Below are positions 397 to 64,000 of a DNA stretch of 64,000 nucleotides, in pieces. Positions within the stretch are counted from its first letter, which is position 1, and each line of letters begins with the position of its first letter. The DNA is from a virus: IMG/VR virus record IMGVR_UViG_3300023296_000800; one strand, written 5' to 3'. A model generated the notes under the pieces. It had not been told where the DNA came from and did no database searches. It was given only the letters and a program-made list of their open reading frames with translations. A program made the translations under genes and the position numbers.

Positions 397-1380
397 ATGA
401 GTTCTATACTAGAAGGAGCAGATCAAGGATACCTCGCAGAATACAATGCATCTGAGGACGAAAGACGATTAGAAGCATTACAACATTCTATAGGCGATGT
501 TAGAAAAGCAACAAAAGGCGGTAAGTATCTTGGTAATGATGTCGTAGACATTATGGTACAAATAGAGACCTTTGCAGAACAGCTCGGTATTGATCCCGAT
601 GAACTTAGATACTATGAAGATCAAGTTAGAGAAGCGCAAAGCAATTTAGAATCTGCTATTTACGGACTAGAAGAACCATTTGAAGATGCTATTCGTAGTT
701 TACAAGGTAAGATAGATGATGCAATATCAGATGCGGAATTTGCTGATGATGAAATAATTGATGAAGTGTTTGACAACGATGCTTTCAATGACATTTTTAA
801 ATCAAAACCGGATCGCAGGGAGCCAAGCAGACCAGATATTTCGGGTGCTAAACGAGTGGCAGATCGTAAAGTAGCAGGATCTAGTGAGTTACCTAAAATA
901 AAAACTCTTCCAGGCGCGGCCCAATACACATCCGAAGATGGGAAGAAATCTCAAAGACTTGATCCATCATGTTGGAACGGTTACAAGAAACAAGGCACCA
1001 AGATGAAAGGTGATACCAAAGTTAACAATTGTGTTAAAAAAGAGTCACGTATTGGTAGCACACTTAGCATGGTGTCGGAAGAATACGAAAGAAATTTGCG
1101 CGAAGGTAATGGGAAAATGAGAAGCATAGCGGCAGGAGCTTTATTAATTGCTAGTCTATGGGGAGTTAACAACCATTTAGCACAGCAAGCATACGATAGC
1201 AGTTCACAGTTACAACAGTTAACAGCGTTGCATCAAAAAGCAATTGATTCTCCTGGCCAAGAAGCATATGCAAAAGAATTGAAGCAAAGAATCGCTAACC
1301 ATAAAATACGTTTAGACATAGGCAAAGGTGATATCCGTGATAAACACGGAGCAATCAAACAGATCACTAAAGAATCTTAA
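397..1380 (+). CDS. Hypothetical protein, probably virion-associated
   Basis: 327-aa ORF; contains CWNGYKKQGTKMKG..VNNCV, a motif I recognise from T4-like phage hypothetical proteins; N-terminus MSSILE. Confidence 0.75.
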   Translation: MSSILEGADQGYLAEYNASEDERRLEALQHSIGDVRKATKGGKYLGNDVVDIMVQIETFAEQLGIDPDELRYYEDQVREAQSNLESAIYGLEEPFEDAIRSLQGKIDDAISDAEFADDEIIDEVFDNDAFNDIFKSKPDRREPSRPDISGAKRVADRKVAGSSELPKIKTLPGAAQYTSEDGKKSQRLDPSCWNGYKKQGTKMKGDTKVNNCVKKESRIGSTLSMVSEEYERNLREGNGKMRSIAAGALLIASLWGVNNHLAQQAYDSSSQLQQLTALHQKAIDSPGQEAYAKELKQRIANHKIRLDIGKGDIRDKHGAIKQITKES

Positions 1381-1402
1381 TCAGATATAGAAACGTTATA
1401 AT

Positions 1403-1807
1403 ATGCAATTACGTGAAATAACTCAATCTAAGAGCCATAAAATCCCACAAACCGAAGGTATGGGTGGATCCTCTGGTGGAGGAACCGCAGGATCTGGCGG
1501 TGCTGGTGGCTCGTCATTAGGTCTTCCTTATCCATCGACATACGAAGAAGAAAACGACAAGTTTAAGACTTATCACCCAATCGACAAAAACAAACGACCA
1601 ATGCACAATCTTTCTATGACAACCGAAGAAGAGGATGAAGCAAAAACAATCAAGGATCGCCCAAAGAAGACCAAGAAGCGTTATACATCCACGACAGCAC
1701 AACAAAGAGAACTAGCATATGTTGAAAGTGCGGCTTTTAAAAAAGCATTGAAATTAGTAGAAAACTATTTGTGCCCGAGAGAAAGACTGACAGATAAATA
1801 CATGTAA
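1403..1807 (+). CDS. Hypothetical protein with Gly/Ser-rich linker
   Basis: 134-aa ORF; GGSSGGGTAGSGGAGG tract; N-terminus MQLREI. Confidence 0.7.
   Translation: MQLREITQSKSHKIPQTEGMGGSSGGGTAGSGGAGGSSLGLPYPSTYEEENDKFKTYHPIDKNKRPMHNLSMTTEEEDEAKTIKDRPKKTKKRYTSTTAQQRELAYVESAAFKKALKLVENYLCPRERLTDKYM
1793..1800 (+). promoter_or_regulatory. T4-late-like promoter (GATAAATA)
   Basis: Resembles T4 late consensus TATAAATA; 21 nt upstream of dps with an AGGA RBS between; the same motif recurs before many genes. Confidence 0.55.
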
Positions 1808-1821
1808 CAGGAACGATTATA

Positions 1822-2265
1822 ATGCTCGCAGAGAACCTTAAAATACTATTAGCAACATCATATGCATTTGTTATCAAAGTGCAAAACTTTCACTGGAATA
1901 TAGAAGGTAGCAACTTTCCACAATACCACAAATTTTTTGATGATTTGCAAGGGGAAGTATATGACAATGCAATCGATAGAACGGCTGAATACATTCGTAC
2001 ATTAGAATCCTATACCCCAGGTTCAATCACACGGTTTGCGGAATTATCATTAATACCAGATCAATTAAAAATACCTAGAGCAGAGTTGATGTTTCAAGAA
2101 TTATACAGAGACAATGAAATAATACTTGCACATTTAAAAGTATGCTATGATTCATGTGAAGCATCAGAACATTATGGCATTTCTAATTTTATTGCTGAAC
2201 GAATAGATGCTCAGAATAAACACCAGTGGATGTTACGAAGCACACTAAAGACATCTAGGGAGTAA
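1822..2265 (+). CDS. dps: Dps/ferritin-like DNA-protecting protein
   Basis: K.QNFHWNIEG..F..YH.FFDDL, D..AEYIR.L and K..WML motifs; 147 aa. Confidence 0.9.
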   Translation: MLAENLKILLATSYAFVIKVQNFHWNIEGSNFPQYHKFFDDLQGEVYDNAIDRTAEYIRTLESYTPGSITRFAELSLIPDQLKIPRAELMFQELYRDNEIILAHLKVCYDSCEASEHYGISNFIAERIDAQNKHQWMLRSTLKTSRE

Positions 2266-2268
2266 CGC

Positions 2269-5200
2269 ATGCTCTCATCACATTACGAAAATCTATTACT
2301 AGAATACAGACAAGACAAGACCGCTGAAAAAATGGGTGTTGCTTTAGCCGACAGATTGATGACCGATGTCGATAATAATCCAGACATCCTGGATGCAACC
2401 ACAGCACTCCGAATACAAGAAATCGAGGCCTCAAAAGATCCAAAACATCCATTATCGAAAGAATGGAATGAGAACGATAAGATGACGCCTGAAGCAATAG
2501 AAGCACTAGTTGCAAAAGCCTACGATTTCCTTGCTATCAAAGTCTTGAATACATTAGAAAAGACAGACCCTACAAAGAAGAAAGAATACGTACAATGGCT
2601 TGCGAGAATTTATATTAAAGATGCGATGTCGATAGAAGATATCCAATCTACTATCGCAGATTACTTAGAAAAATTTCATAAGTTAAAAATTAAGCGACAT
2701 TTATCCAACGCTGACATCGGTCAGTTCAAAAGCTTCAGCCTATTCATGAATGAGCTAGATACTTTTTCAAATGACTTGTTAGATGTTGAAGATGATGAAT
2801 TAAGCCCCAAGAGAGATTATACAAAGTTATATGACGAAGATAATATTTTAGTTATTCATCCGAAAACTAAGGCGGCTGCCATGAAATATGGTAGAGGTAC
2901 ACGATGGTGTACAGCGGCCACTAGAGGACAAAATTACTTCACTCATTATAATAAACAGGGCCCTCTGTCTATTTTTATTCCTAGACGACCCGATCATCCA
3001 GGAGAGAAATATCAGTTTCATAAAAACGGCCACGGTATAGTTGTTGCTGATGAGAAAGATGATTACCTCAATCAACTAGAACAAATAAATCTCGTTGATA
3101 GATATCCTGGTCTTAAAAAAGCACTTAAAGATCAAGCCGCTGAGGCTGGTGCTATCTGGCTACAAGAGCCGATAGAGACATCAACGGGTGATGGTTTTAC
3201 ATTAGACGAATATCGAAAAGATAGTCAACCATTTTATATTATAAAATCAACAGCAGACCCTTCCGAAGTATATACAGTCGTGCAAGGTACTAAGGGTTAT
3301 CCAACAATTATGGCCCTCGATATTAACGGCCGTGGAAACACTTTAAATCTGATACAACAACGGAATTTTCTTAAAAAATACCCCGAATTAGTAACTAGAT
3401 TCGGCGGAGATTCGATAGAAGAATTTGACCCAATTGATAACGTCGGGGATTTTGAAGTCGAGCAAATTAAAGGTGGGTATGTTGTTACAGATACAAATCC
3501 CCTAGAAGATGCTGACTTAGAGGCAGACGACTCTAAGGACCCCACCGCTACTAGACGAATTAGCGAGAATCAATACGGTATCAGCGTAAATATCCAGGAG
3601 GAGCGAGAAGAGGGTAGAAGATTTAGGCTTCCTATTGATCCGTTTACGATCATAGGAACTAGGCAAAGTGATCACACACATGAACCCGCTAATCCATATG
3701 AATTTACAAGAAGAATTCCAGGCATGGTTGAATTTTTAGAGCCTAAGGTAAAGGAATTGCTGGATAAATCACTAGACAGCATTAGCAAATTAAAACCCAG
3801 TGAGATAGGCTCTGGTAAGGGAGCCGCCGAAGAAAAAGCCGCGCTTGTACAAAAAGCATACGTAGATTTAGCATGGGCCATGCCTTATAAAATATACGAT
3901 AACCCGAAGACAGCTATTAATTCACATGTAACTTATGAAGGCAAGCCGCTAGTAGATTATATCATATCCAAAATTAATACAGATTATATTTATACGGTAG
4001 AACATGATCTGGTTGAAGATACTAAGCCAAATATTAATAGTATAAAGATGTATCGCCTGAAGGATACGGCAACTTATGAAAAATCTGAAGACGAAAGATT
4101 GATGTTCAATGTAAGTAATCTGGATAATCTGAAAGACAACAGTGGTAAGGCAATGGATACTCTAGCTAGTATTTCGTTCTTGAAAGCTCATCCAGAATTA
4201 AAAAAAATGTATGCAGGTACGAGTCTGGTAGACCCAGTAGTTACTGAAACAGAAAACGTTCAAATTGAAGATTATGGACTTCAGCGCAATGCTGATTATA
4301 GAGGTGGTGACAGCGATAACCCTTGGTATCCAACAACATGGAGAAACTTTGTGTTAGACTCTAAAGATGTGCCTGGACTTCAATACAGTATTACGTGGCC
4401 AATTGAAAACCCGGGCCTAACACAAGTACAAAGAATCAACACAGAAGGTACGGGATTGCTGGTTGACGACCACCACAGAATCCAATCAATTTTAAAATTA
4501 GTACCCGAAATCAAAACACTACTAAAGAAAGATTTTAAAAAACAATTAGAGGCTACTGGTGAAGATGCCGCACCTAATCGGGACAGGACTGGCCGCGGGG
4601 GAGGCAACCCATACCATGGCAACTACCATACGAAGTCGATACTACCTGATAACCTGCTTATTGATCCTACTGAAGTATATGAGGATGCCACTGTACAGAT
4701 AGATCAATTCGGTCCATATGGTGGTCCTTTTTCGCTCCCTAGATTTGTTGTCACTCCAAAAACCGAAAACCCTTTTGGTAGTGTAGGTGATACGTTTTAT
4801 ATAGACATGCAAACTAAAGACCGCAGGGGCAAGGCAGGTAAGATTGCCTCAATTGTAATCAGAAGAATGGCAAAAGCAGTCTATAGACATGAAGACGGAA
4901 ACGGAAATCCTTTTGCTGATGAGCTTGATAATCCCGGTACATTTGTAGAAGATTCGATAGATTTACCAGCAAAGCACGTAATAGACTTCTTCAAGGCTTA
5001 TCCAGGACTTAGGCGCATGGTGAAGGATGAGAATGTACATGCAACTGTGCCGCACCCTGCTCTAGCAGTTAAAGCAGATGACATAGAAGCCGCAAAAGAA
5101 GGAGTCCGGGACTTTCCTGCGTTTACAATGGAAGATGTTCCTGGCGTGAAGGGTTCATATTATGTTATCCCTAAGGAAGAAACATTTAATGATGAATACT

Positions 5201-7845
5201 ATACCATTCAAGTTCAACAGGAAGATGATGAACTACCAAAACAATACGGCAATGGTATCAGAATACCAACAATACAACTATTTTCAGGTGAGTCAAGAGA
5301 AATGCTAGCCAAGTTGAGTGGAACTTATGGAAGCAATCGCGGCAGAAGTAGATCAGTTAAAATTCCGACTAATACTGAAGAGTTTAATGCAATACTTGCG
5401 CGATTCCCAGAACTATTACCATTCTTAATCGACCTAGCAAAAGAGGAAGGATCATTAACATTACAGAATCCCGAAAATGTTACTGAGATAGGTATTCATA
5501 GAGTGTATGAGTTTACGAACGCTGATAAAAGTAAACAATATGTAGTTACTCCTATAGGCAACCCAGTAAGACCAGCTGTAGGCCAGATTGATAGCGAACA
5601 AGATGCCGAGACTCAACGCGCATACCGGGGCAGTAACGGCGATGACGGGAACATGATACCATCCGAGACCTGGAACCGCAATTCAATCACCATAAATTTT
5701 GAAAGTACTCAGGACAATATGGATCAGTTTGTCGAGTTAAATACCTTGCCGGACATTAAAGAACTTGCGTCTTTGGTAGAAAAAATTCCATATGAAGAGG
5801 CTAAGCAGAAGCACATGAACGCTGTCGATGAGTTTACACGTACTAGTACCAACTTTGTCGATGAGTATAGACGTTCTCATAACGGTTTTAGAACAGTTGA
5901 TCATGCGTCACCAGAGATATTACGCATTAGAGGAGATGCACCTTTAAAGAAATATTTTGAAGATTTAGCAGAAGCAAGAAATGCAGAAACTAAAGGTATC
6001 GGAGATTTCATTAACTTTTTACCAGACACTACCAACTTAGGTTCACTCCCTGCTAGTATTACGGTGTTTGATCTGCCAATACTAACTATTACTAAACTCG
6101 GAATTGCAAATCCTATAATATTCTATCTTTATCATGTAAGGCAATCTTTACAAGCATTGAGTGATTTAGACCCTAAGGCTTTGAAAGCTATGGCTATAAA
6201 GTTGGGTGCAGATGAAAAAGAAATAGAAGATATTGATTGGTCAACTAGCGATACGATAGCCCGCTCCAGATACAGCCATACATTAAACCAGAAGTTTATG
6301 GCCGCTGGATTTGGTAAAGTATTCTCCGAGGGATGGAATGATGGCATGAGAGCTAGTATAGGAAGAGAACTGACAGACCAGCATATGATGGCATTTAAAC
6401 CAGAGTCTGGTACGTATTTTGAAGGGCGAGGCAACTCACCAAATATCCTCGTACAAACTAATTCTCTTGTGGAACCATTCTTGTATAACCGCCTTCCTGG
6501 TCTAAAAGAGCAGATGTCCCCGAAAAAAGCAAAAGAAAATGGCTTGGCTCCTGCTTCCGTATGGAAGCCTCAGGCCGATACTCCGAAACCTAACCTACAG
6601 AATGACGGCAAACGATGGATCAAGAACATAGAAAAATTCAATATGCCCAATGGATTTACATTAATTAGTGGTAGGGGATACTATCGCGCTCAAGCAACAC
6701 ATACTCGGTTAGCGCCCGGTACTCTATACAAGATTAACCTGAATCCCATAGAGCATGATGCCGCAATGGGTGCCAGCCAGTCCCTTATGCAACTAGGTAA
6801 GAATTATCGGGACTTGCGATATAAACTTTTTAATAAATCGCAAAGCAACTTTTTCTATATGTACTTCGTAAACAATAAAACTGCTATAATTATAGATGAT
6901 CAAGGTCAAAAAATGCCACTCTCGACTAAAGACAAAGAAGCATTGTTCTTTGGTATACCCAGGCGCGGCCCTGATGGTGAGGATGTTAGGACATTGGGTT
7001 TGATGCCAGAAATAAGGTCTGCATTCGACGAATACAAAAAGTCTAATAAATGGATGCGCGAAGCATACGCTCACCAGCATCATCTTAATCGATTCTTGGT
7101 AGAATCATTCGATAACTTGACATGGACAATTCAAACCGAGAACAACAATAATTATAACAAATTGCATTTCTTAAAACCAGGAGAATTACGTGGCTCTTAC
7201 TCAGATAGTCAACTTATAAGTTTGGGCTTTAAGAAATCAAATAACGGACACTTTTATATACCACAAACAAAATGGGACACTCTAATTAATACAGGTAAGC
7301 TCAAAGAAATGACACTGCGACCATTGAAAACAGGGAAAGCAAAGATTGCTCAGACTGGCAGTAAGAAAATAGCAGAAGAAGATGACGATGACACACTAAC
7401 ATTGCCTAAAATTAAAGTAGGTGATGAAGTTAAAGTGGGCAAGTTTAAAAACCGCAAAGCAGAAGTAACTGGCTTTGCCAAAGATGAGAACAATCATCCT
7501 TTACTCAAAACTACTAAAGGTGAGCAACAAGTATTCAAGCCACGTTTCTCTAAACTGATGAAAGAAGAAGACGATGCAGTTATCGAAGAAGGGAAGAAAT
7601 TCCCAAGAACAAGTGAGTTCTTGCATGTCAGGGAATTAGATGATATTAAGCGATTGGCTGGTGTCTATGATCCATATGTTGACGAAGGTGATAGCTCAAT
7701 GGGTTCGAACATATCCAAGACTTCTAGTAAAATTGCACAGACAATGAGGGATAAAAAAATACAACCAGGCACCCCAGAATGGTTTCAATTATGGTTCTCA
7801 AAGCCATACTTAACGGGTGAAAAGCCCACTGGAGATGAGGAATGA
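2269..7845 (+). CDS. 1858-aa multidomain protein with degenerate internal repeats
   Basis: Long uninterrupted ORF; N-terminal GTRWCTA..YF..Y...GPL region; about 10 F/L-x-x-x-P-(E/G)-L helical motifs; short C-terminal modules including ELDDIKRLAG. Confidence 0.9.
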   Translation: MLSSHYENLLLEYRQDKTAEKMGVALADRLMTDVDNNPDILDATTALRIQEIEASKDPKHPLSKEWNENDKMTPEAIEALVAKAYDFLAIKVLNTLEKTDPTKKKEYVQWLARIYIKDAMSIEDIQSTIADYLEKFHKLKIKRHLSNADIGQFKSFSLFMNELDTFSNDLLDVEDDELSPKRDYTKLYDEDNILVIHPKTKAAAMKYGRGTRWCTAATRGQNYFTHYNKQGPLSIFIPRRPDHPGEKYQFHKNGHGIVVADEKDDYLNQLEQINLVDRYPGLKKALKDQAAEAGAIWLQEPIETSTGDGFTLDEYRKDSQPFYIIKSTADPSEVYTVVQGTKGYPTIMALDINGRGNTLNLIQQRNFLKKYPELVTRFGGDSIEEFDPIDNVGDFEVEQIKGGYVVTDTNPLEDADLEADDSKDPTATRRISENQYGISVNIQEEREEGRRFRLPIDPFTIIGTRQSDHTHEPANPYEFTRRIPGMVEFLEPKVKELLDKSLDSISKLKPSEIGSGKGAAEEKAALVQKAYVDLAWAMPYKIYDNPKTAINSHVTYEGKPLVDYIISKINTDYIYTVEHDLVEDTKPNINSIKMYRLKDTATYEKSEDERLMFNVSNLDNLKDNSGKAMDTLASISFLKAHPELKKMYAGTSLVDPVVTETENVQIEDYGLQRNADYRGGDSDNPWYPTTWRNFVLDSKDVPGLQYSITWPIENPGLTQVQRINTEGTGLLVDDHHRIQSILKLVPEIKTLLKKDFKKQLEATGEDAAPNRDRTGRGGGNPYHGNYHTKSILPDNLLIDPTEVYEDATVQIDQFGPYGGPFSLPRFVVTPKTENPFGSVGDTFYIDMQTKDRRGKAGKIASIVIRRMAKAVYRHEDGNGNPFADELDNPGTFVEDSIDLPAKHVIDFFKAYPGLRRMVKDENVHATVPHPALAVKADDIEAAKEGVRDFPAFTMEDVPGVKGSYYVIPKEETFNDEYYTIQVQQEDDELPKQYGNGIRIPTIQLFSGESREMLAKLSGTYGSNRGRSRSVKIPTNTEEFNAILARFPELLPFLIDLAKEEGSLTLQNPENVTEIGIHRVYEFTNADKSKQYVVTPIGNPVRPAVGQIDSEQDAETQRAYRGSNGDDGNMIPSETWNRNSITINFESTQDNMDQFVELNTLPDIKELASLVEKIPYEEAKQKHMNAVDEFTRTSTNFVDEYRRSHNGFRTVDHASPEILRIRGDAPLKKYFEDLAEARNAETKGIGDFINFLPDTTNLGSLPASITVFDLPILTITKLGIANPIIFYLYHVRQSLQALSDLDPKALKAMAIKLGADEKEIEDIDWSTSDTIARSRYSHTLNQKFMAAGFGKVFSEGWNDGMRASIGRELTDQHMMAFKPESGTYFEGRGNSPNILVQTNSLVEPFLYNRLPGLKEQMSPKKAKENGLAPASVWKPQADTPKPNLQNDGKRWIKNIEKFNMPNGFTLISGRGYYRAQATHTRLAPGTLYKINLNPIEHDAAMGASQSLMQLGKNYRDLRYKLFNKSQSNFFYMYFVNNKTAIIIDDQGQKMPLSTKDKEALFFGIPRRGPDGEDVRTLGLMPEIRSAFDEYKKSNKWMREAYAHQHHLNRFLVESFDNLTWTIQTENNNNYNKLHFLKPGELRGSYSDSQLISLGFKKSNNGHFYIPQTKWDTLINTGKLKEMTLRPLKTGKAKIAQTGSKKIAEEDDDDTLTLPKIKVGDEVKVGKFKNRKAEVTGFAKDENNHPLLKTTKGEQQVFKPRFSKLMKEEDDAVIEEGKKFPRTSEFLHVRELDDIKRLAGVYDPYVDEGDSSMGSNISKTSSKIAQTMRDKKIQPGTPEWFQLWFSKPYLTGEKPTGDEE

Positions 7846-8285
7846 GATTCTTAGAATTTATGGCAGAGTCAGTAACTTTTTCAGCTACTAAAGCAGTCCC
7901 ACATGAAAAATATGGGACCATCGACGAGTTCATGTCTGACTCGCCTGAAATGAATGTGAGCAATGGTAACGCAATGGCAATACAAAGAATGCTTGGTCTC
8001 GTTCCTGATTATGGCGGTACAATAAAACACGAAGATATACCCAACATTCTACGTACATTGATGCGATTAAAAAATTCAGATACAAGCCAACACACGCAGG
8101 CACCATCCAAGACTGGTGGGGAGATGGGCCGATACAAAGATGATGACGGCATGGATAGAATAGGTAAAAGTGCAACAATGCATGACGCGGGCCGATCTAA
8201 TGACCAAGTAAATCTTTATATTGATCGTTTATTTGAAATTCTTACCTTTGCACAAAAAAATGAAGGAGACTTAAGTTGGGGGTAA
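7842..8285 (+). CDS. Hypothetical protein with capsid-targeting-like N-terminus
   Basis: ATGA overlap with upstream gene; starts MRFLEFMAES. Confidence 0.75.
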   Translation: MRFLEFMAESVTFSATKAVPHEKYGTIDEFMSDSPEMNVSNGNAMAIQRMLGLVPDYGGTIKHEDIPNILRTLMRLKNSDTSQHTQAPSKTGGEMGRYKDDDGMDRIGKSATMHDAGRSNDQVNLYIDRLFEILTFAQKNEGDLSWG

Positions 8286-8758
8286 AGAAGTTTGAGATCA
8301 TACCAACAGAACCACGATGTGGCGATTGTACCGCATGTTGCGAATCAACAGGATTTACAGGTGACTGGAAAAAAATAGACCGATACAACGAAGCAGAAGC
8401 ATCTGGTATAGATTTTGGTCCTTGGAGCACTTGCAATAAACTTTGCAGTACAGGTTGTTCTATTCAAGACACCAAACCCAGAACGTGTACCGATTTCTTT
8501 TGTCATTTCATAGAACACGATTTAGAAGATAAGTTTAGACCCAAAGAGTTTGGGTATATTGCATTTACAAGTCTCGATAAGAACAGTGAAAACATAGAGA
8601 TTATGTCTTTGGACCATACCTTACCTGCGGAAACACAATATAATAACAACAAAAAAATGTTAGATGAGTTAATTGACAAAGTGCGTATAAGTCTAGGCAA
8701 GGAATATGTATATGCTACTCTACACACTAAAAAATCTGGAATCAAACGAATAAGATGA
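8276..8758 (+). CDS. CxxCxxCC (YkgJ-like) Zn/Fe-chelating domain protein
   Basis: CGDCTACC, CNKL...GCSI...KP..C..FFC; TTG start is uncertain. Confidence 0.75.
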   Translation: MGVKKFEIIPTEPRCGDCTACCESTGFTGDWKKIDRYNEAEASGIDFGPWSTCNKLCSTGCSIQDTKPRTCTDFFCHFIEHDLEDKFRPKEFGYIAFTSLDKNSENIEIMSLDHTLPAETQYNNNKKMLDELIDKVRISLGKEYVYATLHTKKSGIKRIR

Positions 8759-10191
8759 AGTTTTTCATATGCGACGATAATACTAAGTTCACCAAGACCG
8801 AGTATAAATCGTTTGGTAAGTGGCACTTCTACTGCGACGACCTAGTTAAAATATATGAAAATTCAGACTTTATAGTATTGTATTGTGGTTATCTGATTCA
8901 AGGAGATATACTAGAAGCGTGTAAGAACTTTAGTTTTGATGACGAAAACGGAAATTTCTTTGCTGTGAAACTGACCAAAGATGCTTACCAGATATCAATA
9001 GATTATTTTCAAAATCATAAGTTGTTTGTCGCAACCAAATACGGAACAGAGATTACTAACTATCTTCCGTACATGACAATCACCTTAAAGGATGTTGTTA
9101 GAAAAACTCTTACATATGACAAGTATGAACGTGAGATAATGCCCAAAGAGTCTGAAACTTTCTATGATCATATCAACTCGTTTGTCCCTCCATATGATTA
9201 TATACAAGACAGCAAAGATGCTCTTGCACAAGAATACTGGGATAACTTCGAGGAATTTGCTGAGTACATACATCAATGTATGGAATCACATGCAGACGTA
9301 ATTAAGAAAAACTATCCTAATAGATTTTGCTCATTAAGTGAAGGGATCGATTCTGCGGTCCAATCACAATATTTTTATGATGATCCGCAATATCTTTATG
9401 ACTTCTATCCATGTGACGCTGGTGCCATTCACAAAAAATATATAAAAATTGCACAAAGTAATTTTACTAATACACATCATGTCACTTTCTATGCAAAAAA
9501 TAACAAAGAAGAATGTTATAAACATCTAGTGGATTCTACTTGTCGCTGGCAAGTTATTATACCTACTTTCAAACAGCTTTCAGACTGTCCAGTAAAACCG
9601 GATATTGTTTTGTATGGAGTGAACGGTGACGAAGTATTCTTGCGAGATTTAATACCTCATTTACTATTGCTATCTTTAAAATATTATGATATACTCGATA
9701 CTACTAGCATGATAGCCCAACTTCGACAAGAGATCGAATCTAAAAAAGGGCATTATGCATCAACGTACTCTTTGCCATCAAAAGAGAACAGTAAAACAAC
9801 AGATACATTTCTTAGAAAGTTTTTAAATGATTGGTTTAAGACAGAGACTAAAGAGAAATGGTATTTATTTAAGAGAAGCCGCGAGGACATAGAAAATGCC
9901 TTATTAATGTACACTACGCCTAAACTATACACACGTGCAATCAGTTGTAACAGTGATATAATGTGTGCATCGTTATACAACGACAGAAGAATATATCACG
10001 AGTTTTTCAAGATGGAAAACCACTTCTTAGAAGGTGATGCCATGGATGCTCCTATCCAAAAATTAATACTAAATAAGTTTGAATACGAGTTTATTACACC
10101 TAGTAAGGATGTTCTTTTTGGGAACTATGATGAACTGTATGCTCACACCTACGGAGCAACTATTGATAATGACTTGGACCAAAACATATAA
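8755..10191 (+). CDS. Asparagine-synthetase-like ATP pyrophosphatase (adenylating enzyme)
   Basis: PP-loop-like SLSEGIDS and VLYGVNGDEVF (cf. LSGEGADELF); lacks the N-terminal catalytic Cys of the glutaminase domain. Confidence 0.6.
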   Translation: MKFFICDDNTKFTKTEYKSFGKWHFYCDDLVKIYENSDFIVLYCGYLIQGDILEACKNFSFDDENGNFFAVKLTKDAYQISIDYFQNHKLFVATKYGTEITNYLPYMTITLKDVVRKTLTYDKYEREIMPKESETFYDHINSFVPPYDYIQDSKDALAQEYWDNFEEFAEYIHQCMESHADVIKKNYPNRFCSLSEGIDSAVQSQYFYDDPQYLYDFYPCDAGAIHKKYIKIAQSNFTNTHHVTFYAKNNKEECYKHLVDSTCRWQVIIPTFKQLSDCPVKPDIVLYGVNGDEVFLRDLIPHLLLLSLKYYDILDTTSMIAQLRQEIESKKGHYASTYSLPSKENSKTTDTFLRKFLNDWFKTETKEKWYLFKRSREDIENALLMYTTPKLYTRAISCNSDIMCASLYNDRRIYHEFFKMENHFLEGDAMDAPIQKLILNKFEYEFITPSKDVLFGNYDELYAHTYGATIDNDLDQNI

Positions 10192-10787
10192 TGCGATTTA
10201 ACGAATTCAAAGACCTTACAGAAAACTCTTATAAAGGTGACGGCTCGCCTGGCATGGTGATGGGTATTGCAAGTGATGCTCGTGGTGGTACATACGAAGA
10301 CACAGACCTTACAGAATACGAGCTAGACAATGAAAATGGTTTAGGAGCTGTCCCTAACAACAGTGGCGACAATCCAGATTACTTTGGTATTCGTGTAATG
10401 ATGACTCCATCCATATTTCATAGATTGGCGGCATCCTTAGGTGACTATCGTGCAGGAGATTTTGAAGGGTTGGTAAAGAAAGTTGCAGATGGTGTACCTA
10501 TTGCTAGTCCATTTTTAAAAATTACTATACCTGATAGGTGGGAAGGTGATCCACCTATCTTTCATGATCCAGCACGTGTAGATGGACATGAAGGAAGACA
10601 TCGCATGCATGCTGTACATGAAGTAGACGGAGATGTTCCCGTAGAAGTTCATATATGGGGACGATTTCAAAGCAGTGAAATGCGTAGAAGACACTTAACT
10701 GACGAGATGATCGAAGAAATACTTAACGGCTTAATCAATGAGGCCGGTAACGAATACGTTCATAACATTGGAACTCTTAAGAGATAA
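10191..10787 (+). CDS. ParB/Sulfiredoxin-like domain protein
   Basis: VDGHEGRHRMHAV resembles the ParB-N DGHHR motif; N-terminus MRFNEFKDLTE. Confidence 0.55.
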   Translation: MRFNEFKDLTENSYKGDGSPGMVMGIASDARGGTYEDTDLTEYELDNENGLGAVPNNSGDNPDYFGIRVMMTPSIFHRLAASLGDYRAGDFEGLVKKVADGVPIASPFLKITIPDRWEGDPPIFHDPARVDGHEGRHRMHAVHEVDGDVPVEVHIWGRFQSSEMRRRHLTDEMIEEILNGLINEAGNEYVHNIGTLKR

Positions 10788-10790
10788 ATA
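10783..10790 (+). promoter_or_regulatory. T4-late-like promoter, probably leaderless transcript
   Basis: GATAAATA ends 6 nt before ATG 10796; no Shine-Dalgarno. Confidence 0.55.
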
Positions 10791-10795
10791 CTAAT

Positions 10796-11647
10796 ATGAA
10801 ACACTCTGAAATAATGGCAAAACTAAGCGAAGGTAAATTCATTCCTGGATTTATGGGAGCCGATGGTGAAACTACTGCTACTCCTACAAAGAAAGATTAT
10901 GATTCGAATGATGAATATCAAACGACGAAAGCAAAAGGGATCGCACCTGATGTTGACGAGAAGCACTGGGACGGATCAAAACCTGAGGATACGATACACG
11001 AGGAATCAGACGAAGAAATGAATGACATGAAAAGATTAGCTGGTCAAGCAGTAGAGGAAAATTTAGATATAGTTAGAGATCCAGAACATGGTATGCTCAA
11101 CTATGAAAAATTCTTTGACTTCTTACGGAATATGCCTAGTAACTCTACTAGTGTTGATAAAATAAAAGCACTCATTAACACGTATGAGTTAAGTAGACCT
11201 GAAGCAAGAGATATTATGAATATCGCTCGCCTTCAACGAGTAGTCGAACATGACATCAGTGTAGAAGATGCTGAATTGAATGAAATCTCACGCTTATCAG
11301 GACTTGGAGAAGCTCGTCCTGTACGCAGTGAGTATGACGATGACGATGATGACGATGATTATGAAGACAAGTCACCAGTAACTCCAGATGGTGATACCGT
11401 CCCTCACCTGTTAATGCAACTCAAAAAAGCAAAAGATGTTGATGGTGAGTATCCTATTAAATTTGCCGATGGAACAGAACACGTTCTTTCAATTTCCAGA
11501 ATAAACGATTTTATAGGGATATACATGGCAATAAAACCACTGGACAGGGAAAAGCTACAGGAAGTGGCTATCATGAGTAAAAAGCAATTCGATAAAATCT
11601 TAGACTTGTTTGTACCTGGCGCACAAAAAAGTACTGACGAGAAATAA
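10796..11647 (+). CDS. Acidic hypothetical protein, probably virion-associated
   Basis: 283 aa; two copies of an E(L/M)N(D/E)xxRL(A/S)G motif; poly-Asp tract. Confidence 0.8.
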   Translation: MKHSEIMAKLSEGKFIPGFMGADGETTATPTKKDYDSNDEYQTTKAKGIAPDVDEKHWDGSKPEDTIHEESDEEMNDMKRLAGQAVEENLDIVRDPEHGMLNYEKFFDFLRNMPSNSTSVDKIKALINTYELSRPEARDIMNIARLQRVVEHDISVEDAELNEISRLSGLGEARPVRSEYDDDDDDDDYEDKSPVTPDGDTVPHLLMQLKKAKDVDGEYPIKFADGTEHVLSISRINDFIGIYMAIKPLDREKLQEVAIMSKKQFDKILDLFVPGAQKSTDEK

Positions 11648-17172: not shown

Positions 17173-17405
17173 CGATTGCGTTTATCTACATCATCACAGA
17201 TAGATTTTGCTAAACTACTCCCTGTAGTTTTGAATAAAAAGGGTAAAAAAGCATGAATGATTACGGCTAATCCAGCAATAATCATCTGTGCTCCGTATGA
17301 TAAGGCACACCAAAGATGATGTAGGTATGATTCTCCGAGTGATCGAGGGTGTTCAGTAAATGTGTGTCTTAGTCTACTGAAAAATGTGGTTATTCTGTTC
17401 GCCAT
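17169..17405 (-). CDS. DUF6356-like small membrane protein
   Basis: FTEHPRSLGESYLHHL...IHAFLPFLF..TGS pattern; start moved to ATG 17405. Confidence 0.65.
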   Translation of the reverse strand: MANRITTFFSRLRHTFTEHPRSLGESYLHHLWCALSYGAQMIIAGLAVIIHAFLPFLFKTTGSSLAKSICDDVDKRNR

Positions 17406-17913
17406 ATATTTTAATATATTTACCGGCAACCATATCGGCAGCCGCCTCTATTGGTGATCCAGGATAACTGCTACCTGGAGTGATTAAATTCTTTTCGCCT
17501 TGTCTAATATGAACTAATTCATGGAATACTGTTCGCATAATATCAATTAAGTTTCTGTTACCATAGACCCAAATTTCATCAGAGCCTACTTCATGTCTAC
17601 CTGTATGGTGACCTTCTTGTGCTTCTTCTGTGTCGTAACTAATTACGATCTTGGGCATGTTTTCAATCTTAAGAAGTTTGCCCATCCAGTCTGCGCCTTT
17701 CTGTGCTTCGTCTTCTATGTTAAGACCATCGTCAAACATTTCATCAGAGGCGGTTAACTGCTCTCTAGCCTTATGTGCTTGTTTAGCGGCATCTTGGGCA
17801 TTGCGATAAATTTTGCCCTTTTCGTCTACATCATATTGATCACTTTTGATCTTAGGAAGTCTATTCTCTAAGTCTTTTAGCGGGGATTCTGTTATAAAGT
17901 CTATTGCTCTCAT
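17374..17913 (-). CDS. Zincin-like (HExxH) metallopeptidase-domain protein
   Basis: RTVFHELVHIRQ plus downstream E..AD; N-terminus MRAIDFITES. Confidence 0.65.
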   Translation of the reverse strand: MRAIDFITESPLKDLENRLPKIKSDQYDVDEKGKIYRNAQDAAKQAHKAREQLTASDEMFDDGLNIEDEAQKGADWMGKLLKIENMPKIVISYDTEEAQEGHHTGRHEVGSDEIWVYGNRNLIDIMRTVFHELVHIRQGEKNLITPGSSYPGSPIEAAADMVAGKYIKIYGEQNNHIFQ

Positions 17914-17919
17914 GCTATA

Positions 17920-17927
17920 TATTTATC
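17920..17927 (-). promoter_or_regulatory. T4-late-like promoter, near-leaderless
   Basis: GATAAATA on the minus strand ends 7 nt before ATG 17913. Confidence 0.55.
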
Positions 17928-40330: not shown

Positions 40331-40338
40331 TATTTATC
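40331..40338 (-). promoter_or_regulatory. T4-late-like promoter for the GP88-lipase operon
   Basis: GATAAATA on the minus strand about 25 nt upstream of start 40305. Confidence 0.55.
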
Positions 40339-55400: not shown

Positions 55401-55404
55401 TACA

Positions 55405-57217: not shown

Positions 57218-57219
57218 GA

Positions 57220-57747: not shown

Positions 57748-57763
57748 AGGAGGGATAAATTAC

Positions 57764-57967: not shown

Positions 57968-57972
57968 AAGAT

Positions 57973-59079
57973 ATGATAATTAAAGAATTACTGCGCGAAG
58001 ACGAGAATGTTTCTCGCCATAAACCACATCTATATTTAGATATGGATGGAGTCCAGGCTGACTTTGATAAATCATGGTGTGAGTTTGAAGGGGTTAGTGA
58101 TTGCGAAGACATAGCCAACCCAGAGCAGTCAATACAGCGTTTGGCAGCCGGCGGATCTGACGCTGTATACGAGTTTTTCCGCGATCTGGAGACCCTAAGG
58201 GGAGGCCTAAGCGTTATTAAGTGGCTACAACAACATAATATCAACTATACAATACTTTCTGCACCTTTAAGGTATGATCCTGAGCCAAGTATCAAAGGCA
58301 AGCAAGAATGGCTTGATAAACACCACCCAGGAACGTCTGAGGACGCCATATACACATCTAACAAGTACAAGTATGCAACTGACAAAAATGGCAATCCCAA
58401 CGTGCTAATCGACGATTACAGCAAGAATATAGTCCCATGGGACAACGCAGGGGGCATAGCAATCACGCATGATCCAGCTGATGCAGGGCCCACAATCAAA
58501 GCACTTGAGCAGATATATCTCAAAGATGAGATAGATGAAGCAAGTCCTGACACATTAGAGGGTAGTTTTACCCCTGATCTACAGTATAGTAAAGTCTGGT
58601 TACTAGATGAGGTACAGAAGATACTAAAGAAAGCCAAAGTACCAAATTTAGATACTATCTATAACTTAGGTAGTTGGTACAGTAACATGGGATTGTTCTT
58701 AGTTGCGAACAAGTTAGGGTTTAACAAGTTAATCAACGTTGATATAGATGAGAATACATTGACAACAGGAGCAAAACTACTAGATAAACTCGGTATATCT
58801 GATAAAGTAGAACATATGCACAAGGATGCCAATACAATAGACTACAGACAACTTAAATCTCCTGGACTAGTTATCAATACATCGACTAATGACATTGATG
58901 GAGATGATTGGTTAAAGAATATCCCTGAGGGGACATTAGTTGCAATGCAAGGTAGACACGGAACACTAGCAGAATTTGACAATCAATTCCCATTGAGGAA
59001 AACATACTTTTTAGATGAAGTTGAACTGGAAGATCCAGAGACTGAATATGAAAGGTTTATGAAAATAGGTGTTAAATGA
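57973..59079 (+). CDS. Fusion: HAD 5'(3')-deoxyribonucleotidase-like domain plus methyltransferase-like Rossmann domain
   Basis: YLDMDGVQADF (DxDG), ILSAP, LIDDY; C-terminal IYNLGSWYSNM, INVDID, VINTST. Confidence 0.7.
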   Translation: MIIKELLREDENVSRHKPHLYLDMDGVQADFDKSWCEFEGVSDCEDIANPEQSIQRLAAGGSDAVYEFFRDLETLRGGLSVIKWLQQHNINYTILSAPLRYDPEPSIKGKQEWLDKHHPGTSEDAIYTSNKYKYATDKNGNPNVLIDDYSKNIVPWDNAGGIAITHDPADAGPTIKALEQIYLKDEIDEASPDTLEGSFTPDLQYSKVWLLDEVQKILKKAKVPNLDTIYNLGSWYSNMGLFLVANKLGFNKLINVDIDENTLTTGAKLLDKLGISDKVEHMHKDANTIDYRQLKSPGLVINTSTNDIDGDDWLKNIPEGTLVAMQGRHGTLAEFDNQFPLRKTYFLDEVELEDPETEYERFMKIGVK

Positions 59080-60382: not shown

Positions 60383-60386
60383 TAAT

Positions 60387-60992: not shown

Positions 60993-61536
60993 TTTAGCAG
61001 AATTAAGATCAGTTGATATCGATATCGGAGTGCTTCGAACAGAATGGGAAGCACAAGTTGTTTATCAATTTGATCATGCATGGGAAGCACGTAATTATGT
61101 TAGTTTCGAATTCTTTACTGCTTACTATAAGCAATTGCTACTCGACATTGAAAATAAAATAGGCGAGACACCACTTAATTATATCATTCAGATGCACGAC
61201 CCCAAGTTAATTACTGATAAATGGTATCTTAACATAGCACACAAAGATGCAGATCGATTGGCATGCATTACCATACCAGTATACTATAATCGCATGGAAC
61301 CTATCAATTTTTATGACGATGTATTTGAAAAAATGCCCGAGCATGGCAAGCCTATCACAACAAGACCCAATCAGGTTGGACAGTACAGCGAGTGTCATCC
61401 AACACTGGTCAACGTAAACAATTATCATAATGTCAGAATATTAGACGAGGTAGAACCTAGAATTTTTATTCAAATGAGTTACAACATCCATTTTGACGAT
61501 CTAATAGAGAAGAATAAAAACATGTATGTATTATAA
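60982..61536 (+). CDS. 2OG-Fe(II) oxygenase-like (divergent)
   Basis: AHKD...ITIP...PTLVNV..YHNV...RIFIQM. Confidence 0.6.
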   Translation: MQNNLAELRSVDIDIGVLRTEWEAQVVYQFDHAWEARNYVSFEFFTAYYKQLLLDIENKIGETPLNYIIQMHDPKLITDKWYLNIAHKDADRLACITIPVYYNRMEPINFYDDVFEKMPEHGKPITTRPNQVGQYSECHPTLVNVNNYHNVRILDEVEPRIFIQMSYNIHFDDLIEKNKNMYVL

Positions 61537-61550
61537 GGATAAATACTATA

Positions 61551-61727
61551 ATGTCAGAATCAGATAAAGTTAGATACGAAGTAATTACACAAGAAAACAC
61601 GGACGGTGATTTGATTATTCCAATCCCTGCTCCGTTACTTAAATCATTGGGCTGGACAGAAGAAACAGAACTAGCTATCGGTGTTAACGAAAACGGCACT
61701 ATATTTTTAAAGAAGGCTGAACAATGA
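61551..61727 (+). CDS. AbrB/MazE/SpoVT-like swapped-hairpin protein (absent from the ORF track)
   Basis: GDLIIPIPAPLLKSLGWTEETELAI; GATAAATA ends 6 nt before ATG. Confidence 0.65.
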   Translation: MSESDKVRYEVITQENTDGDLIIPIPAPLLKSLGWTEETELAIGVNENGTIFLKKAEQ

Positions 61728-62296
61728 GCAAAACGAAAGAAAAGAATTACAGACTACATCCAAATTTCGCGGCAGGATACTTGAACCAACCGTTCGAACC
61801 GATAACGCCGCCCTACGCACCATCCAGCCACCTAAATGCAGTATCAAATACAGGTCCAAAACGAAGTCTTAGTAATTTAGGCTTAACTTCAGGTCACAGT
61901 TCACCAGGCTTAACTTCAGGCAATCCGCCTAATCCCAATGGTAATGGTTTCACTGGTAATGGTACTAGTTTCACCGTTACGGATGGTACCACGACTCAAC
62001 TAAACGGCATGAATTATGGTACCATAACTAGTGTTGGTGATTCTTATGGTATCGGTATCGGTGAAACCAAAGGACATCTCGCAGTTGATGGTGAGATCCT
62101 CACCGCAGAAAAAATACAAATATTAGATGGTTTAAAAGACTGGCAAAAAGAAATAGATGCTAAACTTGGAATCCTGCGGCCCAATCCTAAGTTAGAAGCA
62201 GAATGGGCTGAGTTAAAAGAACTCAGAGAACGATACGAGGAACTTGAAAAAGAGTTTACAGAGAAAAACCTGGCGTGGGATATTCTTAAGAAATAA
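61724..62296 (+). CDS. Low-complexity N-terminus with C-terminal coiled coil
   Basis: G/T/N-rich region; LGILRPNPKLEAEWAELKELRERY. Confidence 0.75.
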   Translation: MSKTKEKNYRLHPNFAAGYLNQPFEPITPPYAPSSHLNAVSNTGPKRSLSNLGLTSGHSSPGLTSGNPPNPNGNGFTGNGTSFTVTDGTTTQLNGMNYGTITSVGDSYGIGIGETKGHLAVDGEILTAEKIQILDGLKDWQKEIDAKLGILRPNPKLEAEWAELKELRERYEELEKEFTEKNLAWDILKK

Positions 62297-62313
62297 CGAG
62301 TTAGGGGAAACCA

Positions 62314-62928
62314 ATGATCGATGTTCAACGCGGGTTTCTTGTCAATGATCGAGAAATCGATGCATCATTCAATTCAATAGGTCATCGATGCCCTGAGATC
62401 GATGATGTTCTTGGTAAAGATTTAAATTGGAAAAGATATTTTATCGTTTTGGGTGATAATGCTGGCCTGCACATGCATTTACCACTAGAAGATACTTGGC
62501 CATATCTATTATCAAAAAATATTGGCCATACATATTATAATCTGTGTGTTATAGACGGCGGGACAGAAGCAGTCAGATTTAACTTAATGTCTTGGCTTCA
62601 TAAATATCCGACACCTAAATATATCTTTGTTTCGTGTGAATGGGCTAATCGATTCTTCGGAGTAAATTATGAAGACGACACCCACGACATTAACAAAGCA
62701 TCGACTCTTGCAGATGAGGTAGGATATTTCTCAGGTAGACAAAGATTGTTAAGTACATTGGTCGAACATATAGATATACCTATCTACCAAATCATGCGTT
62801 CCACCGACATTCCTGTGCTTATATCAAATAATGTAACTAATATTATAGTTGATCACACAGACGATCAATTAGTCGCTGAAACGCTCGCCAGGGGCTTTAG
62901 GCAGAAGCAGAGAGCTATATCTGTATGA
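62314..62928 (+). CDS. Degenerate SGNH-like protein
   Basis: NSIGHRC, TWPYLL, YYNL; lacks the block I Ser; paralog of the next gene. Confidence 0.55.
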   Translation: MIDVQRGFLVNDREIDASFNSIGHRCPEIDDVLGKDLNWKRYFIVLGDNAGLHMHLPLEDTWPYLLSKNIGHTYYNLCVIDGGTEAVRFNLMSWLHKYPTPKYIFVSCEWANRFFGVNYEDDTHDINKASTLADEVGYFSGRQRLLSTLVEHIDIPIYQIMRSTDIPVLISNNVTNIIVDHTDDQLVAETLARGFRQKQRAISV

Positions 62929-63557
62929 AGCAAATGCTGTTTAGTCATGCGGCTATTGCTGAAGATCCTGAATACAACTCATATGGTCATCGATGCAAAG
63001 AGGTAGCAGACCTTGACAAAGACAACTATGTACTTTTTGCAGGATGTAGTCATGTCGTAGGCGTCGGTGTTAAAATAGAAGAATCATTTCCCTACCTGAT
63101 AGCAAAAGAACTAGGATGCGATTACTACAACTTAGGTGTGGGTGGTGGTGGATTAGATGCACTAGAACACAATTTACTTTTATGGGGCGCATTAATACCG
63201 AACCCACCCAAATACATATTCTGTGAATGGCCGCCAGAGCAGAGATTTATGAATCAGTTGCCAGGCTATGACAATATGCTTCCATGTGGATCATGGCATG
63301 GGGGCAAGAACCAAGAATTTTTAATAGAGGCTTACTATCCTTTAAAGGTTAAACAACAGTTAGTATATCAGTTGGTCAGAGAAGTCATTGATGTACCTAT
63401 CATTGACATAAGATACGGTCCATTGGCTATAATGGGGCGTAATGCGTATACTATCTGGCATCAGAAATCTGATGTGGGAACTGATGGGAAGCATCCAGGT
63501 CCACTTTCTCATCAAGAAACCACCAACAAAGTAATGGAGTATCTTAATACTAGATAA
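62925..63557 (+). CDS. SGNH hydrolase-like protein
   Basis: NSYGHRC, FAGCSHVVG, YYNLGVGG, DGKHPG. Confidence 0.7.
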   Translation: MKQMLFSHAAIAEDPEYNSYGHRCKEVADLDKDNYVLFAGCSHVVGVGVKIEESFPYLIAKELGCDYYNLGVGGGGLDALEHNLLLWGALIPNPPKYIFCEWPPEQRFMNQLPGYDNMLPCGSWHGGKNQEFLIEAYYPLKVKQQLVYQLVREVIDVPIIDIRYGPLAIMGRNAYTIWHQKSDVGTDGKHPGPLSHQETTNKVMEYLNTR

Positions 63558-63565
63558 ATAAATAT

Positions 63566-64000
63566 ATGATAAAACAATATAAACAAGCAGTAACCGAAGG
63601 GAAAAGAGTAAATAGACCGGCCGACATCGAGATCATTCCTCTTAACTTTGATGCTAAGGAAGTAAAGCCAGTAATGAGCCAAGACACCCTAGATTTACAT
63701 TATGATAAGTTAGCGAAGGGTTATGCGACACGGTATAATAAACACGAAGGGAAGGCTGAATTTAATTATGCAGGAGCTTTTTTGCATAATATTTATTTCC
63801 CGCAGTTTAGAGAAGTAATAAACAATAACAAACCCAATGGGCCTATCAAAGGCTTTATTGAAAAGAAATTTGGATCGTTTGAGTTGTTTCAAAAAGAAGT
63901 CGAAGTGAAAGCAATGGCAATCGAAGGATCAGGTTGGGTATACCTTGCAAAAGACGGCAAGGTCAAGATAATAGAAAACCACGAAGTACGAGATGATATA
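63566..64000 (+). CDS. sod: Fe/Mn superoxide dismutase, 3'-partial (absent from the ORF track)
   Basis: Manual translation: MSQDTLDLHYDKLAKGY...FNYAGAFLHNIYF...KFGSFELF...GSGWVYL; GATAAATA ends 6 nt before ATG. Confidence 0.9.
   Translation, partial: MIKQYKQAVTEGKRVNRPADIEIIPLNFDAKEVKPVMSQDTLDLHYDKLAKGYATRYNKHEGKAEFNYAGAFLHNIYFPQFREVINNNKPNGPIKGFIEKKFGSFELFQKEVEVKAMAIEGSGWVYLAKDGKVKIIENHEVRDDI

Follow-up and report, generated by a model that had tools for sequence, protein, structure and literature searches.

Bacteriophage T4 supplies the best described example of a short N-terminal peptide that directs proteins into a phage head. The first 10 residues of its internal protein III (IPIII; MKTYQEFIAE), known as the capsid-targeting sequence (CTS), suffice for packaging, the prohead protease gp21 cleaves after L/I-x-E, and within the CTS residues 4 and 7 serve targeting while residues 8 and 10 serve processing (PMC9026906; 10.1101/2021.01.19.427310; PMC3012670). 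The T4 protein Alt is a precedent for a packaged enzyme that is trimmed at its ends by gp21, and the T4 protein gp24 carries gp21 cleavage sites as well (PMC9026906). In a giant phage, too, a gp21-family protease cuts many head-internal proteins on the C-terminal side of Glu, and these are ejected into the host (PMC9026906); that system differs in its long propeptides, its lack of a conserved short tag, Ser or Ala rather than Ile or Leu at P3, and the absence of T4-type core genes. Here we describe a leader of the T4 CTS type on a series of unrelated proteins encoded in a 64,000-nucleotide stretch of viral DNA (IMG/VR record IMGVR_UViG_3300023296_000800; the whole stretch is called the window below), which may mark these proteins for loading into the phage head.

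The window comes from an uncultured jumbo myovirus whose core genes are of the T4 type. Its GC content is 37-41%. The family B DNA polymerase encoded in it is likewise of the T4 type (phrog_262, E = 6e-199), and by identity of this enzyme Sinorhizobium phage Phosso (49%) is the closest cultured phage, Agrobacterium phage Atu_ph07 (46%) the second-closest, with the Rak2-like jumbo phages CBB, GAP32 and BF at 43%. Uncultured relatives in IMG/VR number in the hundreds. The one used most here, G001, is a 335,035-bp contig that is 95% complete, has a polymerase 71% identical to that of the window and is syntenic with the window at its positions 202-257 kb. Genes identical to those of the window are present in several metagenome contigs, one of which (L001, from the same phage) reaches 2.2 kb further upstream, while a nucleotide search of deposited phage records with the gene of the 1858-amino-acid (aa) protein as query returned no match.

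A short leader on unrelated proteins

The first-pass annotation of the window had proposed that about ten unrelated proteins share a CTS-like leader, namely 397, 1403, 2269, 7842, 10191, 10796, 17913(-), 40305(-), 57973 and a superoxide dismutase (SOD, 63566), each named here by the position of its start codon, with (-) for the minus strand. All ten N-termini were found again at their coordinates and strands, and the proteins are indeed mutually unrelated, as BLAST returned no pair below E 0.01 besides a short common internal motif. The loose form of the leader, a hydrophobic-x-Glu in the first ~12 residues (^M x(1-10) [ILVMF]-x-E), did not hold up as a signal: it is present in 26/93 open reading frames (ORFs) of the window (28%), in 69/258 T4 ORFs (27%) and in 17-21% of internal control windows.

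A narrow leader was defined as M-[RK]-x-x-[E/D/Q]-[F/L/I]-x(0-4)-[I/L]-x-E with 8-12 residues. Its core M[RK]xx[ED]F begins 3/93 window N-termini with 0.1 expected (P = 2e-4) and 5/366 N-termini of G001 with 0.2 expected (P = 2e-6), and a stricter regular expression matched ~10-fold more often than in the internal control. For ranking, a position matrix was trained only on leaders outside the window and applied to 95 window N-termini against a null of internal positions (Table 1). A common short peptide at the N-terminus of unrelated proteins was thereby found for 7842, 10191, 17913(-), 10796, 57973 and the product of a 204-aa gene that is cut by the window start; this last case, with the strong leader MKFNEITE↓N (the arrow marks the putative cut), had been absent from the earlier list. 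By the same score among the 95 N-termini, 2269, 397 and SOD do not share the leader. The leader ends are of the gp21 type (ITE↓S, LTE↓N, LSE↓G, LRE↓D), with 7842 ending in M-A-E and so carrying Met at P3.

Taken by sequence, the leader appears strong for 7842, 10191, 17913(-) and the 204-aa protein, is supported by homologues for 10796, 40305(-) and 57973, and is weak for SOD, while 2269, 397 and 1403 count as background by score. The proposal of a packaged cargo survives for about half of the listed proteins, for which several independent lines of evidence speak, and is not supported for 2269, 397, 1403 and SOD, with their background-like scores and orthologue support of an indirect kind only; about half of the ten, together with the 204-aa protein, are probably packaged cargo.

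The leader behaves as a portable module. Within the polymerase neighbourhoods of 80 relatives it was found on 56/1039 ORFs with the consensus MRAxEFI[TI]E, and the mature parts behind it belong to 15 unrelated families. G001 carries it on non-homologous proteins in the forms MRAREFITE, MRAHEFLTE, MRALEFLNE, MRHFEFITE, MRLNEFVVDE and MRIKELLE, the bearers including GNAT-like proteins and proteins without known function. Since the leader codons vary synonymously (AGA/CGA, TTC/TTT, GAA/GAG), conservation of the leader is not a nucleotide signal, and selection works at the protein level. The terminal Glu is invariant, as E9 in 26 homologues of 17913(-) and as E42 in the 10191 family, whereas leader length and linker vary.

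A cassette of the form NSYKGDGSPGMVMG(I/V)ASDAR (window 10224-10316, as well as the related loci L028, L029, L034, L037, L044 and L045) was observed behind three leaders in two families, the leaders being MRFNEFKDLTE, MRTFIDIVNE and MDKYKKTAGLNYLSE. One cassette standing behind different leaders on different families points to recombination of N-terminal modules between cargo genes.

Besides the leader, a motif E-[LM]-[ND]-[DE]-x-x-[RK]-L-[AS]-G occurs in four copies in the window, only in three of the listed proteins and there at module boundaries (Table 1). It is kept in close marine relatives of the 10796 family (EALEDIKRLSG, MDINELKKLSG), is absent from G001, and could be a second docking or processing element.

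T4 signals, prohead protease and virion proteins of relatives

As a control, a matrix built solely from the 9-residue leaders of uncultured relatives, with a one-residue gap allowed, was used to score the 258 T4 ORFs. It placed ipIII and ipII in the 1st and 2nd position (p = 9e-5), followed by gp61.1 (3rd), gp2 (4th) and gp24 (5th of 258), a ranking by which the jumbo-phage leader and the proven T4 signals form one sequence class. The 54-residue hypothetical protein gp61.1 (NC_000866: 18966-19130) starts with MKTFKEFIKE, which is almost the CTS itself, and gp2 (NC_000866: 76061-76885), annotated as DNA end protector of injected DNA, starts with MAIFQIINE↓S. The N-terminus of gp24, MAKINELLRE↓S, is like those of 57973 (MIIKELLRE↓D) and of two G001 proteins (MRIKELLE↓S, MNIKELFE↓G). 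The first 10 residues of T4 gp24 are removed. gp24 is a shell protein of the head vertex and not cargo, and outside the leader the window proteins are unrelated to gp24, gp2 and Alt.

With the CTS of IPII and IPIII, to which the propeptide of IPI is related, the jumbo-phage leader has in common its place at the extreme N-terminus, a length of ~9-12 residues, unrelated carriers, genes away from the head module and a gp21-family protease in the lineage. The pattern is also the same, with a basic position 2, a hydrophobic or aromatic residue, an acidic residue or Gln followed by Phe, Leu or Ile, and the [I/L]-x-E end. The jumbo-phage leader differs in being one residue shorter (MRxxEFxxE versus MKTYQEFIAE) and more variable in length, and in tagging more families, 15 in the sampled neighbourhoods and ~20 proteins in Atu_ph07. 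Its putative cargo consists mostly of acidic enzymes, some with an extra cassette and a second cleavage-like site, in place of the small basic proteins of T4. Finally, packaging and cleavage, proven for T4, are predictions for the jumbo-phage leader.

The protease that such a leader calls for is encoded by the relatives: Peptidase_S77, the family of T4 gp21, was detected in 5/5 related genomes searched, i.e. G001 (98 bits), CBB, Atu_ph07 (gp204), Phosso and a Vibrio jumbo phage. A gp23-family capsid gene was found in G001, Atu_ph07 and CBB, and in G001 and Atu_ph07 a T4-like L-x-E↓ site of the capsid protein precedes a gp23-like mature N-terminus, predicted as ..PLME↓NATAGATSSGNVAVLNQ in Atu_ph07 and as ..LLAE↓STAGTTTAGNIATLN in G001. 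The segment of the 204-aa protein that follows its leader, NASSGGTSAGNVATVNQP, resembles this predicted mature N-terminus of the major capsid protein, and its homologue in G001 (G001:202652-203770) starts with MKINQIILE↓TSAGATGSGSVATV; the 204-aa protein may mimic the N-arm of the capsid protein.

Virion data come from Atu_ph07, the ESI-MS/MS (electrospray ionisation tandem mass spectrometry) proteome of which has been published (Attai 2018, PMC6102473, Table S5). A leader M[RK][WLY]x[QED]Lx(1-3)E is present there on gp47, 53, 55, 56, 59-63, 381, 408, 482, 487, 548, 561 and 672. With gene numbers verified by exact molecular weight, 16/17 annotated leader coding sequences (CDSs) are in the virion proteome against a background of 131/714 (Fisher p = 1e-11), and with paralogues collapsed 7/8 independent leader families are in the virion. 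The proteins gp54, gp57, gp58 and gp394 have the leader at their annotated start and are in the virion table too. The original publication mentions neither a leader nor prohead or internal proteins (Attai 2018, PMC6102473). Like the leader of the window, that of Atu_ph07 is found on several unrelated families within the same lineage (46% identity of the DNA polymerase) and has an L-x-E end; it differs in having 8 residues, being Trp-rich and carrying Leu for Phe, and most copies lie in one family of ~250-residue paralogues. In CBB, both leader-type CDSs, gp299 and gp321 (MRFSQITE, MRYNQLQE), are annotated as 'virion structural protein'. The literature searched contained no description of a CTS or propeptide for Rak2-like or Atu_ph07-like phages.

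Another virion protein of Atu_ph07, gp407 (NC_042013.1: 303755-304783), has its annotated start 11 codons upstream of an internal Met that opens a typical leader, MKLINLLE↓H, and this Met may be the true start.

Carrier proteins and their genomic context

Table 1. Candidate leader genes, internal motif copies and GATAAATA sites of the window, with the matrix rank of each N-terminus.
Feature	Position	Strand	N-terminus or detail	Rank of 95	p
204-aa protein, 3' part of gene	3..395	+	MKFNEITE↓NASSGGTSAGNVATVNQP; start outside the window (L001:1940-2554)	2	3e-4
327-aa protein (397)	397..1380	+	MSSILE↓G; only I-L-E↓G, without targeting-like part; weak candidate	89	
134-aa protein (1403)	1403..1807	+	MQLREI...; without canonical [IL]-x-E end; weak candidate	6	0.02
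GATAAATA, late-promoter-like	1793..1800	+	head of operon 1822-10787: Dps-like gene, 2269, 7842, 8276, 8755, 10191		
1858-aa protein (2269)	2269..7845	+	MLSSHYENLLLE↓Y; leader background-like; ELDDIKRLAG at residue 1789	88	
Internal motif	7633-7662		in 2269, residue 1789		
147-aa protein (7842)	7842..8285	+	MRFLEFMAE↓S; leader codons 7842-7868; MRxxEF core	3	0.002
198-aa protein (10191)	10191..10787	+	MRFNEFKDLTE↓N (10191-10223), then 31-residue cassette NSYKGDGSPGMVMG...	5	
GATAAATA	10783..10790	+	5 nucleotides (nt) upstream of 10796 ATG		
283-aa acidic protein (10796)	10796..11647	+	MKHSEIMAKLSE↓G (10796-10831); two internal E[LM]N[DE]xx[RK]L[AS]G motifs	9 (fixed-length matrix)	
Internal motif	11015-11044		in 10796, residue 74		
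Internal motif	11273-11302		in 10796, residue 160		
179-aa minimal zincin (HExxH) metallopeptidase-like protein (17913(-))	17374..17913	-	MRAIDFITE↓S (17887-17913); best leader of the window	1	6e-5
GATAAATA	17920..17927	-	6 nt upstream of ATG at 17913		
670-aa GP88-domain protein (40305(-))	38293..40305	-	MDLRNILDILTE↓N (40270-40305); SELNDIKKLSG at residue 296	39	
Internal motif	39391-39420		in 40305(-), residue 296		
GATAAATA	40331-40338	-	upstream of 40305(-)		
368-aa NT5C/HAD 5'-nucleotidase and second-domain fusion (57973)	57973..59079	+	MIIKELLRE↓D (57973-57999); Pfam NT5C, phrog_2643	4	0.004
GATAAATA	63553-63560	+	upstream of SOD 63566		
Fe/Mn-SOD-like gene (63566), cut by window end	63566..64000	+	MIKQYKQAVTE↓G; Pfam Sod_Fe_N, Sod_Fe_C	71	

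Most of the candidate proteins are without a family in Pfam and PHROGs. The best leader belongs to 17913(-), for which an alignment of 26 sequences shows E9, H131, E132 and H135 to be invariant. The leaders of its homologues vary in length (MRAxxFITE, MITE, MYE), and two homologues have a full leader, then a 45-residue insert and then a second x-Y-E↓S/T. In the AlphaFold2 (AF2) model, residues 1-9 are disordered and lie outside the fold, with a predicted local distance difference test score (pLDDT) < 50, while the domain 62-179 is confident (pLDDT 75-92). Foldseek matched it to SprT-like, IrrE-like and DUF4157 clusters (E = 2e-4 to 1e-3, template-modelling score (TM) ~0.5-0.6) and to Wss1 (TM 0.58), while Pfam gave no match at threshold. 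Going by this model, 17374-17913(-) is a minimal zincin with SprT/IrrE/Wss1-like fold, so that the earlier metallopeptidase label is borne out by the fold match and the invariant HExxH.

The alignment of the 10191 family places a second L-T-E↓Y of 10191, with E42, opposite the I-T-E↓Y that closes the leader of the relatives. These relatives begin with MRARDFIDE↓Y, MRANEFITE↓Y or MRATDFITE↓V directly ahead of the conserved domain; M1, R2, F6 and E42 are invariant across the family alignment. The protein contains a GHEGRHR motif. The 'ParB-like' label it had been given could not be confirmed, as no Pfam or PDB profile matched, the AF2 model from five sequences was unusable (pLDDT 37), and ParB/Srx turned up only among low-ranked Atlas leads. 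Neither 7842 nor 10796 belongs to a recognisable family (Pfam, PHROGs); in relatives, homologues of the C-terminal domain of 10796 start with MKIQEILFE↓G, MRTFIDIVNE↓N or MDKYKKTAGLNYLSE↓N.

Pfam supports the earlier GP88, NT5C nucleotidase and Fe/Mn-SOD domain labels. The GP88 domain of 40305(-) spans residues 383-571 (E = 1.8e-30), and the G001 orthologue of this protein starts with MNIKELFE↓G. The leader of 57973 lies inside a ~15-residue extension before the NT5C domain, an extension that the Atu_ph07 homologue, starting with MNTLFCDLDG, does not have. At the domain junction 57973 reads E-I-D-E↓A-S-P-D-T-L-E-G-S, with I-D-E↓A at E189 (58537-58539), and in relatives the second domain exists as separate proteins that start at exactly that junction (MRVNE↓ASPDTFEGS, MRYKNLHLDE↓ERLNTLEGS), as one would expect with a protease site at this position. 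SOD carries a ~20-residue N-terminal extension, its Pfam domains beginning at residue 22 with modest scores; an extension is also seen in the G001 orthologue, where it includes MRDIITLLE↓E, but not in a Vibrio jumbo-phage homologue. As a leader this extension is suggestive only, a weak-to-moderate candidate.

Among the proteins with background-like N-termini, 397 begins with ILE↓G-x-DQ-x-x-L, parallel to a G001 protein (MANTLRKFQYILE↓GIDQEHL; G001_203780), which an internal segment of 397 also matches (E = 6e-5). The segment GLPYPxTYExEN of 1403 is common to the same G001 protein and to a 442-aa leader protein of the related locus L080 (MRADEFISE↓G). G001_203780 (G001:203780-206290) is an 836-aa protein with the leader MANTLRKFQYILE↓G, a GNAT-like segment and segments like 397 and 1403, and may be a polyprotein, its parts being encoded by individual genes in the phage of the window. 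For the 1858-aa protein 2269, leader support beyond membership in the late-like operon and the common internal motif was not found, nor were relatives in viral contigs. Its N-terminal domain (window 2269-3300, GTRWCTA) gave PcfJ-like (PF14284) leads in the ESM Atlas at ~0.91 with few common features, an identity that stays a lead only.

The first-pass annotation had placed several of these genes behind ATAAATA late-like promoters. The overall count is not enriched, with 8 GATAAATA sites in the window against 5.6 expected from shuffles, so that only the position of the sites is informative: 7/8 precede a correctly oriented start codon by <= 32 nt, among them the sites ahead of 10796, 17913(-), 40305(-), 63566 and the operon 1822-10787 (Table 1). 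In G001, GATAAATA is found ahead of the portal gene and of a small head-core gene.

At 10783-10796, 17913-17927, 61538-61551 and 63553-63566, GATAAATA stands just 5-6 nt before ATG and no Shine-Dalgarno sequence is present. If it is a T4-type late promoter, this short spacing would make the mRNAs leaderless or nearly so.

The operon also includes a Dps/ferritin-like DNA-binding protein without leader (1822-2265; phrog_3636, Pfam Ferritin), the gene of which is conserved at a central place among the clustered leader genes of G001 and of nine related loci. Loaded by another route, this protein could bind DNA inside the head. Within window 8276-10191, a CxxCxxCC protein (8276) is translationally coupled to an asparagine-synthetase-like PP-loop enzyme (8755).

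Proposed route, alternatives and significance

By analogy to T4, a freshly synthesised protein would dock through the N-terminal part of its leader onto the scaffolding core while the prohead assembles. There a gp21-type prohead protease would cut after the terminal Glu of [I/L]-x-E, and probably also where modules meet, as at I-D-E↓A in 57973. The mature protein would then stay in the DNA-filled head and enter the cell together with the DNA. The predicted cargo comprises the minimal zincin metallopeptidase, the HAD 5'-nucleotidase fusion, the GP88-domain protein and several proteins of unknown fold. For the phage of the window we infer docking, cleavage, a location in the head interior, injection and an early function, such as action ahead of phage transcription, and we consider it reasonably probable that a subset of its genes, i.e. 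the 204-aa gene, 7842, 10191, 10796, 17913(-), 57973 and probably 40305(-), encodes proteins with a T4-CTS-type leader that are loaded into the head, cleaved by a gp21-type protease and released with the DNA.

Several observations weigh against this assignment. The window carries no protease, capsid or scaffold gene, and a gp21 homologue in its phage is presumed from the relatives. Some zincin orthologues begin with only M-I-T-E↓S or M-Y-E↓S, a cleavage-like end without the part of the T4 targeting type, so that the conserved Glu-Ser could partly belong to the mature domain. In G001, leader genes are not significantly associated with the ATAAATA promoter (4/14 versus 52/352, p = 0.15). The stricter expression picks up 22830 (MKDNLLDLIE↓Y), a conserved protein adjoining the DNA polymerase, as a false positive, and 4/7 of its matches in T4 are false positives as well; one of these is, by its N-terminus, presumably a thymidylate-synthase-like ORF. 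Homologues of the candidate cargo are absent from cultured jumbo phages except for the leaderless NT5C-like protein of Atu_ph07, and as no cargo homologue occurs in a cultured phage with proteomics, the virion evidence applies by leader type and not gene by gene. The Atu_ph07 preparation was purified with polyethylene glycol and its list includes some replication enzymes, whereby a listing is no proof of a location in the head interior, and leader cleavage in this lineage is a prediction.

The leader might instead send proteins into the virion but not into the head interior, for instance to tail, baseplate or whiskers, or act as a tag for assembly or chaperoning that stays uncleaved. The Atu_ph07 data give virion association only, without location, and both Atu_ph07 and the Rak2-like phages have complex whiskered tails and many unassigned virion proteins. 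We nevertheless regard this as unlikely, given that the leader ends in a gp21 cleavage motif with an invariant Glu, that the leader model selects from T4 the internal proteins as well as gp2 and gp24, which are proteins of the head and not of the tail, and that the predicted proteins are small enzymes and not fibre-like. Somewhat less likely still is an origin of the M-[KR]-...-E pattern by chance or by a generic N-terminal bias such as AT-rich early codons or an amphipathic helix, be it for the whole list or at least for 2269, 397, 1403 and SOD. The background frequency of the loose motif in window, T4 and internal controls speaks for it, as do the ranks of 2269, 397 and SOD between 71st and 89th of 95 and the fit of the conserved non-cargo protein 22830 to the stricter expression. 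For the narrow leader, however, this account is excluded by the core enrichment in window and G001, the 15 families, the invariant Glu and the Fisher test on the Atu_ph07 virion, so that chance is likely to be the true explanation only for the weak members of the list.

A further candidate explanation takes the leader for a recognition sequence of the type found in ribosomally synthesised and post-translationally modified peptides (RiPPs), to be read by a modifying enzyme, for which the AsnB-like 8755 with its CxxC partner 8276 would be at hand. These two genes sit inside the leader-gene operon, between 7842 and 10191, and Thr at position -2 is common among the leaders, a trait of lasso-peptide leaders too. 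G001, the 80 related loci and three cultured jumbo phages all keep leader proteins, yet homologues of 8276 and 8755 are absent from every one of them; the tagged proteins are enzymes of 130-670 residues and not short peptides, and the leader proteins of Atu_ph07 are virion components. Because 8755 is missing from every relative examined that keeps the leader, this explanation, which we consider highly improbable, was rejected.

Loading into the head by a CTS-type leader is the known mechanism of T4. The present proposal extends it to the jumbo-phage lineage of the Atu_ph07/Rak2 type, adds a larger cargo rich in enzymes as well as junction sites where cargo is fused, and ties it to a virion proteome that already exists; the finding hence widens a known principle and does not establish a new one. 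More tentatively, and with our own expectation falling a little short of an even balance, T4-core jumbo phages of the Atu_ph07/Rak2 type, including the abundant uncultured aquatic clade, may generally use a portable and freely recombining CTS-type leader for loading a large and sequence-predictable set of enzymes into the head and delivering it along with the DNA, among them the zincin, the HAD nucleotidase fusion, the GP88 protein, in relatives GNAT acetyltransferases and possibly SOD, with multi-domain cargo being cut into individual enzymes at [I/L]-x-E junctions in the capsid; the genome of an uncultured phage would then suffice to read off its injected proteome.

The re-reading of the Atu_ph07 virion proteome provides an immediately usable cultured model, and in jumbo-phage engineering the leader could be used as a packaging tag in the way the CTS is in T4. 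Should the leader function as its T4 counterpart does, sequence alone would suffice to list what a jumbo phage delivers along with its DNA. These proteins would be first-minute weapons against host defences, and the candidates would be a zincin protease and a nucleotidase, both injected, and perhaps an SOD.

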